Numbered from the stretch's first letter, positions 10,950-12,197 are shown. The stretch: DNA of 64,000 bases from Escherichia coli (GCF_030013205.1 NZ_CP122648.1), one strand, 5' to 3'. Notes: generated by a model not told the origin, from the letters alone. Numbers and translations are program-made.

Positions 10950-12197
10950 TTAATTATCATCAAAATTAACACCCAATGCAGATAGTTGATTAATTTCATT
11001 TTGATATTTAGCCTGGCGATTTTGAAGCCTTTTTTCAACTTTATCTTCGATTTCCTTAAAGTGGTCATATTTATTTTGAGAACGGTCAACTTCGTTATCG
11101 ACTAAAGTAGAAATTATTTCTTTTACATTATCGCGTCTAAATTTTGCATCGTCCACTTGAAAATTATATCTTATTGCTCGACCTAAACGTTTAAAAACTT
11201 CGTTTGGCTCTCTCAGTCTTTCCCCGTTGAGCTCGTTTACAACCTGATGATCGGAACCTGTTGCAAATGATTCTGCCATGATAGCTTTACTGCTTTCAAA
11301 CCACGCTGAAGCATTCCTGGCTTTTTCACTACAATATTGGGTGAGACTATCACCATTAATACGAATTCCTCTTTGAATGTGGTAGTCGTCCTGATCATAG
11401 TAACCGAGAGATAAGTAATCATTTCCGTTTTTATTTTTAATTACAATAGCGAGAGAATCGCCTTTTTTATCTTTACCGTACCAGGTAAATAAGTCCGTTG
11501 GTTCGCTTTTCCCATTCTCATCAAATTCCGTTATCGTATGTCTGAGTTTTTGTGATATCTTATCGAAGATAAAACTAGGATCTCCATCATATATTTCTTT
11601 TAATGCGCTGAAGATCATTTCCTTGTTATTGATATCATGAGTATTCTCTACTACATTTTCATGGATGATGGTTTGGCCGACTTTTTTGTTTTCATCGTTC
11701 GTAGGTGATTTTATTGGTTCTTGATTATAGATACCACTAGTAATATCGGCTGTATCATTGGAGTCAATAGCACCCTCATTACCACTAACAACGATACTAC
11801 CATCAGTAAATTCAGCATTATTTATATCATCATGAGTCTTCTCAACTATGTTGTCATTAATGATAGTACGGGCGAGTTCTTTGTCTTTATAGCTCGCAAG
11901 TAATTTTATTGGTTCTTGGTTATCGATACCAATGGTAATATAGTCTGTATCATTGGAATCAATATTAATATAAGTAACTGAGGAATTATTAATATTAAAT
12001 CTATCAGGATTGTCGTTTACTCGCATGGCGTTTTTTATAAGCTCAAGCAAATGTTTAATACAGGTACTTATTCCTTCCTTACCATTAAAAAGGTTTTTGA
12101 ACTCTTGTACTAATCTATTAACTTCATCATTGTTATTTTCATTGATGGATTCTGGGTAAGCTGCGCTGGTATTGTTGATTGAAATAGATGGTAGCAT
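10950..12197 (-). CDS. yfdF: uncharacterized protein YfdF-like, AT-rich, with internal tandem duplication
   Basis: 415 aa; N-terminus MLPSISINNTSAAYPESINENNNDEV matches remembered YfdF; about 189-bp tandem repeat inside ORF. Confidence 0.7.
   Translation of the reverse strand: MLPSISINNTSAAYPESINENNNDEVNRLVQEFKNLFNGKEGISTCIKHLLELIKNAMRVNDNPDRFNINNSSVTYINIDSNDTDYITIGIDNQEPIKLLASYKDKELARTIINDNIVEKTHDDINNAEFTDGSIVVSGNEGAIDSNDTADITSGIYNQEPIKSPTNDENKKVGQTIIHENVVENTHDINNKEMIFSALKEIYDGDPSFIFDKISQKLRHTITEFDENGKSEPTDLFTWYGKDKKGDSLAIVIKNKNGNDYLSLGYYDQDDYHIQRGIRINGDSLTQYCSEKARNASAWFESSKAIMAESFATGSDHQVVNELNGERLREPNEVFKRLGRAIRYNFQVDDAKFRRDNVKEIISTLVDNEVDRSQNKYDHFKEIEDKVEKRLQNRQAKYQNEINQLSALGVNFDDN

Follow-up and report, generated by a model that had tools for sequence, protein, structure and literature searches.

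The yfdF gene in the Escherichia coli genome studied here encodes two diverged copies of a module that is found only once in the K-12 protein. We consider it probable, at roughly 80%, that this two-copy form is ancestral, that the duplicated module is an old and diverged constituent of yfdF/icaT, and that the K-12 gene is a deletion derivative, the deletions having been mediated by the repeats themselves. The material was a single stretch of 64,000 nucleotides (GCF_030013205.1, NZ_CP122648.1), one strand, hereafter the window, in which positions are counted from the first nucleotide. The gene and its neighbors are located as follows:

8643-8714, tRNA-Arg (argW)
8790-9722, yfdC
10016-10771 (+), mlaA
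10950..12197 (-), yfdF (icaT/gem1) coding sequence, long two-copy allele, an intact open reading frame of 415 aa
12560-13900 (-), fadL

The first-pass annotation of this DNA had named the gene yfdF, and its position between fadL and mlaA bears this out; the order fadL-yfdF-mlaA-yfdC-tRNA-Arg (argW) is the same in the window and in K-12. The window gene lies at a nucleotide distance of 5.6% from K-12 yfdF (1053 aligned sites), with 88% amino-acid identity between the products. K-12 yfdF matches it in two BLAST pieces spanning 1059 bp, and the only large gap in the alignment is a 195-bp segment corresponding to one period of the repeat described below. A gene 100% identical to that of the window is present in strain K_EC180, where it is annotated as "hypothetical protein," the PGAP name "protein YfdF" being given only to the short form. 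The window product has a predicted pI of 4.8 and a mass of 47 kDa and is rich in N, D, and I. As had been noticed, the gene is AT-rich: its GC content is 34.0%, against 52.2% for mlaA and 48.3% for fadL, and the GC fraction across positions 10800-12400 is 0.31-0.38, compared to ~0.47-0.53 in the flanks, which delineates an AT-rich island. Locus position, full-length similarity to K-12 YfdF, and the AT-rich island identify the gene as an orthologue of IcaT. Between the convergent mlaA and yfdF genes, positions 10781-10812 contain a hairpin with a 14-bp stem and A and T runs on its sides, which looks like a bidirectional terminator shared by the two genes.

The gene was initially taken to be uncharacterized, which is not the case: it is known as icaT (gem1), is activated by MxiE/IpgC and silenced by H-NS in Shigella flexneri, and encodes a Shigella type III secretion substrate (Silué and Campbell-Valois 2022, PMC9241512; Hall et al. 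2022, PMC9769918). Silencing by H-NS extends to E. coli, and a MxiE box upstream of yfdF has been validated functionally in S. flexneri (PMC9769918). According to PMC9241512, S. flexneri IcaT is secreted by the type III apparatus; its residues 1-20 are enough to have a beta-lactamase fusion secreted in a T3SA-dependent manner, and IcaT that has lost 5, 10, or 20 N-terminal residues is no longer secreted. The same article shows yfdF of both K-12 and O157 to be activated by MxiE/IpgC. The window contains candidate counterparts of the signal and of the box:

12138..12197 (-), codons 1-20, MLPSISINNTSAAYPESINE, predicted type III secretion signal, by identity to K-12
12254..12270 (-), candidate MxiE-box-like element TGAGCGTTTTTTGATAG, 57 nt upstream of the ATG, with 4 mismatches to the consensus GTATCGTTTTTTTAnAG

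The first 20 residues of the window protein are identical to those of K-12 YfdF, and codons 1-20 would thus correspond to the secretion signal mapped in Shigella. The upstream 17-mer may represent a MxiE box; it is the same in the window, K-12, O157, and BKQ37E and carries one substitution in the S. boydii allele, and the alleles compared show hardly any variation in the final ~90 nt before the ATG. The MxiE consensus GTATCGTTTTTTTANAG had no match at three or fewer mismatches; published searches for MxiE boxes tolerated up to 4 substitutions (PMC9769918). When S. flexneri M90T and K-12 MG1655 IcaT are taken as the reference system, the K-12 side shares with the window the fadL-mlaA locus, the AT-rich island, the first 20 residues, and the upstream ~90 nt, and M90T IcaT appears to be of the short size, judging from the 44-kDa mass stated for the tagged protein. 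Secretion has been demonstrated experimentally only for S. flexneri IcaT.

A low similarity to IS256-family transposases, the "T" of icaT, has been claimed for the protein (PMC9241512). We found no transposase family in window YfdF in Pfam at E <= 1, all matches falling below the gathering score, and nothing relevant in searches against NCBIfam and PADLOC, while PDB sequence and profile searches returned only coiled-coil noise. Thus, a transposase-derived identity finds no support in the Pfam, NCBIfam, and PDB searches. AlphaFold2 models reached pLDDT values of 39.2 for the full protein (with 10 alleles) and 38.1 for the C-terminal 222 residues, too poor for fold comparison.

An internal duplication within yfdF, as proposed in the first-pass annotation, is evident at both the DNA and protein levels. 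The direct-repeat search returned one family, of 136 nt and 80% identity, at 11634-11769 and 11829-11964 with a spacing of 195, and gapped local self-alignment paired gene nt 235-380 (11963..11818) with gene nt 430-572 (11768..11626), placing the components of the repeat as follows:

11818..11963 (-), repeat copy 1, residues 79-127, IDSNDTDYITIGIDNQEPIK...THDDINN, from self-alignment, direct-repeat search, and protein alignment
11769..11817 (-), 49-nt unique linker AEFTDGSIVVSGNEGA, the length of which varies among alleles
11626..11768 (-), repeat copy 2, residues 144-191, IDSNDTADITSGIYNQEPIK...THDINN, from the same three analyses

Copy 1 comprises 146 nt and copy 2 comprises 143 nt, of which 103 of 130 ungapped positions are identical (79%). 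The DNA local score of 137 lies far above the values obtained with 200 shuffles (24.2 +/- 2.8, maximum 35). Consistently, 26 of the 45 residues in the cores of the two copies are identical (58%), and the protein BLOSUM62 local score, also 137, compares with 29.8 +/- 5.6 (maximum 53) in 500 shuffles. No third copy of the module was found elsewhere in window YfdF by protein-level comparison. The segments had been called near-copies; they are undoubtedly similar, but an amino-acid identity of 58% shows that their closeness was overstated. Similarly, the term "tandem" is appropriate for a direct repeat with a period of 195 bp (65 codons), but not in the sense of adjacent head-to-tail units, given that similarity is recognizable over only ~146 of the 195 nt of the period, that a 49-nt linker separates the copies, and that Tandem Repeats Finder returned no rows for the window at a minimum score of 30. 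The latter result follows from the structure of the repeat, which spans less than two periods, is 80% identical, and includes a non-homologous linker. We also asked whether the linker could have originated as the tail end of the repeat unit and then diverged, but found no support for this: compared with the 80 nt before copy 1 and after copy 2, it scored 11 and 16, respectively, against shuffle means of ~12, that is, with no signal, and it resembles neither flank. The yfdF repeat is therefore a diverged, spaced direct repeat (period 195) that falls short of a strict head-to-tail array, and the data demonstrate only in part that a 195-bp unit was simply duplicated head to tail, the linker having no detectable homology to either flank.

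K-12 YfdF, with one ~48-residue module, is 352 aa long, 63 aa shorter than the window protein with its two modules and linker, and the gene lacks one exact 195-bp period. The expectation that the window product is longer than its K-12 counterpart was therefore correct (415 vs 352 aa), and direct comparison established that K-12 has neither the repeat, the second copy being absent, nor the length of the window gene. The repeat length of ~189 bp (63 aa) initially assigned corresponds to the net difference between the two genes (1248 - 1059), the 195 bp of the period being offset by a separate 6-bp indel close to the 3' end. The missing period and the blocks of exact identity at which the copies could have been joined are the following:

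11643..11837 (-), 195-bp period missing from K-12 yfdF, from the multiple alignment of alleles
11829..11837 (-), ACTCATGAT homology block at the end of copy 1, with its partner at 11634-11642 at the end of copy 2; K-12-type crossover
11945..11957 (-), TCCAATGATACAG homology block at the head of copy 1, with its partner at 11750-11762 in copy 2; LR14-type crossover

Owing to the shared ACTCATGAT, the boundaries of the period absent from K-12 slide by 9 bp, so that 11634-11828 is an equivalent placement. At the K-12 junction, the sequence is GTTGAGAAG-ACTCATGAT-ATCAATAACAAG: the left flank of copy 1 leads into the shared 9-bp block and then into what comes after copy 2. The same junction can be derived from an extant long allele: P0017 yfdF (1254 bp) carries ACTCATGAT at gene nt 361 and 556, and removal of 195 bp yields the 1059 bp of K-12 with the exact junction. 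A different single-copy structure is found in the LR14 allele (L013, 360 aa), in which copy 1 gives way to copy 2 at the TCCAATGATACAGAC block, so that the head of the former precedes the body of the latter; contiguous junctions of the LR14 type are present in 4 complete genomes. The two crossover points, each within a block of exact identity, indicate recurrent repeat-mediated deletion rather than a single ancestral short form.

Variation in the repeat region is not confined to the loss of whole periods. The linkers of the O157:H7 and O145 types differ from that of the window, and in the BKQ37E allele (400 aa) a partial deletion has removed the tail of the linker together with the head of copy 2. 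Copy 2 also contains a hexanucleotide microsatellite, (GATATT)n, encoding Asp-Ile repeats (from gene nt 472 onward in allele L012, and in L003, L004, L008, and L013). There is a single GATATT, and hence no array, in the window (n = 1), two in the O157 and P0049 alleles, three in O145, MG32, and LR14, and six in HCP5S3_I2 (430 aa). All indels of the repeat region among the sampled alleles, of 195, 48, 12, 9, 6, and 3 nt, are in frame, and the region is an indel hotspot. LR14 additionally carries a 12-nt tandem duplication, TCACATGCGAAC / TCACCTGCGAAC, "SHANSPAN." Disruptions of the gene were encountered as well. The O157:H7 long alleles of OK1 and TUM18530 (L002 and L005) have a frameshift or premature stop, the annotated coding sequence being 343 aa, which matches the 71-residue C-terminal truncation published for phylogroup E (PMC9241512). 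IS1A has inserted at yfdF in 2017.06.04CC (L007) and C43(DE3), disrupting or displacing most of the gene, and just the last 120-140 nt of the gene are left in 2017.06.04CC.

This variability raises the possibility that the repeat region is a selected variable module, namely, a slippage-prone, in-frame acidic segment the copy number and sequence of which are under diversifying selection, as in contingency-like or antigenic variation and comparable to the changes in repeat number seen in certain type III effectors. We consider this unlikely. The maintenance of the reading frame and the presence within copy 2 of a (GATATT)n array with n = 1-6 are compatible with such selection, but hexanucleotide slippage and in-phase repeat recombination give in-frame outcomes anyway. 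Among nine intact alleles, mean pairwise dN/dS is 0.62, with 0.45 in the N-terminus, 0.45 in copy 1, 0.62 in the C-terminal part, and ~1.2 in copy 2; the latter value could reflect diversifying selection, but it is based on 45 codons with few sites. The fact that the protein is a Shigella type III secretion substrate (PMC9241512) also speaks for a selected module. For comparison, dN/dS between the window and K-12 is 0.05-0.07 for the neighboring mlaA and yfdC. A dN/dS of ~0.6 for a gene that also suffers premature stops and IS1 insertions and is absent from 21% of genomes points to weak constraint on yfdF as a whole, and given this weak constraint the length variation is most likely near-neutral. 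Furthermore, MxiE/IpgC is absent from most E. coli, in which H-NS holds the gene silent (PMC9769918), and the authors who characterized it see a possible fossil gene (PMC9241512 and PMC9769918). A related and, in our assessment, still less probable reading is that the 415-aa two-module form is the original functional secreted IcaT, the single-module form of K-12, and apparently of M90T, being a crippled deletion derivative and the repeat a selected, slippage-tunable module. Were it true, part of the "fossil gene" impression would stem from the study of the wrong allele.

For the population survey, 5,426 complete E. coli genomes were searched by blastn with the 195-bp segment. yfdF was matched in 4,286 of these and is absent from ~21%. 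The places found totaled 5,549, with two repeat places in 1,263 genomes, at least 80% of the segment covered in 1,235 genomes, and three places in none of the 5,426, copy number being derived in this census from BLAST places rather than from extracted sequences. The long form thus accounts for ~29% of yfdF-positive and 23% of all complete genomes, and the single-copy form for about 3,020 of the 4,286 yfdF-positive ones. The first-pass annotation implied that the long form is rare, which is incompatible with about 1,235-1,263 genomes carrying both copies. According to PMC9241512, the extra segment is present in all examined strains of phylogroups D and E and missing from A and B1. In our data set, both copies occur in S. 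boydii, O157:H7, and O145 lineages, that is, also outside D and E in the case of S. boydii. A distribution with the segment in D/E and without it in A/B1 fits a loss in the A/B1 crown on the consensus E. coli phylogeny.

Relatives of the protein appear to be limited to the same group of bacteria. Among 100,044 GTDB species representatives, 87 pattern matches to two conserved peptides were obtained and none was confirmed. HMMER searches of 1.84 billion protein representatives retrieved one full-length cluster (83% identity) and otherwise fragments, with none beyond E. coli-like sequences, and a word-index search produced 418 clusters, the 120 clusters listed all being from E. coli or Shigella. 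Judging from these sequence searches, yfdF seems to have no homologues outside E. coli/Shigella. Given that no outgroup was available, the paralogous copy was used for rooting. Five matches labeled as plasmids came from records of 0.37-4.9 Mb, too large for plasmids, and were taken to be mislabeled chromosomes or fragments. In PHROGs, phrog_29678 (unknown function) matches residues 77-341 with E = 1.9e-146. A phage origin of yfdF was nevertheless rejected, because a tblastn search of 50,697 phage genomes detected no YfdF-like protein; the source of the PHROGs family is probably a predicted prophage that was extended past the argW site next to the gene.

The age of the duplication and the direction of change bear on the history implied by the first-pass annotation, in which a recent tandem duplication in this strain or lineage expanded an ancestral K-12-like gene of 352 aa. 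Several circumstances would seem to favor such a scenario: the annotated K-12 reference is short and PGAP reserves the gene name for the short form; short alleles are in the majority (about 3,020/4,286); and the segment is called an internal addition in phylogroups D and E by Silué and Campbell-Valois (PMC9241512). Nonetheless, we find it very improbable. New copies would be identical, whereas those of yfdF differ by 20% at the DNA level and by 42% at the protein level. The p-distance between copy 1 and copy 2 is 0.17-0.25 (mean 0.20), with dS of 0.35 and dN of 0.21 between copies, whereas the mean distance among alleles is 0.048 for copy 1 and 0.077 for copy 2; divergence between copies thus exceeds that within copies, and the duplication is older than the coalescence of the sampled alleles. 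Both copies are present in every long allele sampled, copy 2 being at least as diverse as copy 1, and the two are found together in more than 1,200 genomes spanning many lineages, S. boydii, O157:H7, and O145 among them.

The position of the K-12 unit relative to the two copies is equally incompatible with a recent duplication. Copy 1 of P0017 (S. boydii) and of P0049, both long alleles, differs from this unit by 0.8-1.6%, and every copy 2 does so by 17-26%, these distances being calculated from just 126-135 sites per unit; the K-12 unit groups with P0017/P0049 copy 1 with 100% bootstrap support inside the copy-1 clade. The relationship extends to both sides of the gap, K-12 differing from P0017/P0049 by 1.2-1.7% both in the 5' flank and over the 330 nt that follow the repeat, compared to 2-10% for other long alleles in the same regions. 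It should be noted that yfdF alleles are recombinant mosaics, the 3' third of the K-12 gene resembling the O145 allele and its 5' two-thirds resembling P0017/P0049, so that the nesting of the K-12 unit in the tree could reflect recombination in part. The existence of two different single-copy junctions also argues against a short ancestor. Thus, the direction of change is from two copies to one. Finally, the notion that the two segments look alike only on account of a low-complexity, AT-rich composition (34% GC; richness in N, D, and I; no array according to Tandem Repeats Finder) or through an assembly artefact is of negligible probability, considering that the scores lie ~40 SD (DNA) and ~19 SD (protein) above composition-preserving shuffles and that the same two-copy structure recurs in >1,200 independently assembled complete genomes.

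Under the favored reading of an ancestral two-copy form, a ~48-codon module would have been duplicated anciently in yfdF/icaT with a 195-bp period, and the resulting direct repeats would subsequently misalign through replication slippage or unequal recombination at blocks of exact identity of 9-15 bp, each deletion event taking out exactly one in-frame period. A crossover in ACTCATGAT would have produced the 352-aa form of K-12 and most E. coli, in which the body of copy 1 is kept, whereas a rare second event, with the crossover in TCCAATGATACAGAC, would account for the LR14 form of 360 aa, in which it is the copy-2 body that was retained. Smaller slippage events would be responsible for the gain or loss of GATATT units and linker codons. 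The anatomy of the junctions is what suggests a deletion mechanism of this kind, be it slippage or RecA-dependent recombination.

Deletion between short direct repeats via slipped misalignment or unequal recombination is a general mechanism (reviewed by Lovett). Both yfdF deletions conform to it in removing one period, with the junctions in perfect blocks of 9-15 bp and the repeats 195 bp apart, and it is from this anatomy only that the mechanism would be assigned to yfdF. A different parallel is offered by EspF and TccP/EspFU of EPEC/EHEC, which contain several copies of near-identical proline-rich repeats and have known host targets. Like these proteins, IcaT is a type III substrate with an internal module, the copy number of which varies between strains by in-frame gain or loss of whole units; unlike them, YfdF has at most two copies, which are 58% identical, acidic, and rich in N, D, and I, and there is no sequence relationship.

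The length difference as such was known before, as the "internal addition" of Silué and Campbell-Valois 2022 (PMC9241512), and is an ordinary length polymorphism of a known gene. The available text of that article treats the segment as an addition, uses neither "repeat" nor "duplication" in connection with icaT, does not present the segment as a copy of its neighbor, and leaves the direction of change unaddressed, whereas here the segment is recognized as a diverged second copy and the short form as the product of deletion. What is added here is modest: the "addition" duplicates, in diverged form, the module next to it, the K-12 form is derived, and at least two deletions occurred at different short homology blocks. 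Beyond bookkeeping, their importance is small. The reference K-12 yfdF and the PGAP name "protein YfdF" would stand for a derived deletion allele, while more than one-fifth of complete E. coli genomes carry the longer, probably ancestral form under the label "hypothetical protein." For work on Shigella IcaT, the D/E "addition" is better viewed as a diverged duplicate module, the change as a loss, and the region as an indel hotspot. The yfdF locus also provides a clean natural case of diverged direct repeats between which deletion appears to have recurred at short blocks of homology.

Several other features of the window were recorded. The fadL gene (12560-13900, minus strand) differs from that of K-12 by 22.8% at the DNA level, and 347 of 454 aligned residues of the products are identical; residues 1-81 of window FadL are identical to K-12, with differences throughout the remainder. 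By comparison, mlaA, yfdC, and yfcZ are just 0.9-1.8% from K-12. The window type of fadL (at least 95% identity) was found in 1,133 of 5,425 genomes and the K-12 type (about 79%) in about 4,290; E. coli thus appears to be dimorphic at fadL. The C-terminus of window-type FadL is present beside several of the long yfdF alleles, though not beside every one.

Two sets of C4 antisense RNA and isrK, a combination taken to be a P4-like signature, are present at 5522-5716 and 59873-60070 (minus strand). The first set belongs to an element within positions 1-8461 of the window, with toprim-primase, Icd-like, ogr/Delta, and integrase genes, which is integrated at tRNA-Arg (8643-8714); the corresponding tRNA-Arg site of K-12 is occupied by CPS-53/intS. 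By reference to the near-identical K_EC180 record, the region ~37400-50000 contains genes for a T6SS-associated TagO and a hok/gef toxin, a P2-family tail block, and several truncated phage genes, and looks like a degraded P2-like prophage or a tailocin-like remnant. A yfc-type fimbrial usher gene at ~20186-22824 is frameshifted according to the K_EC180 annotation, and the window differs from K_EC180 by a 1-nt indel within the usher gene, between positions 22501 and 22751.
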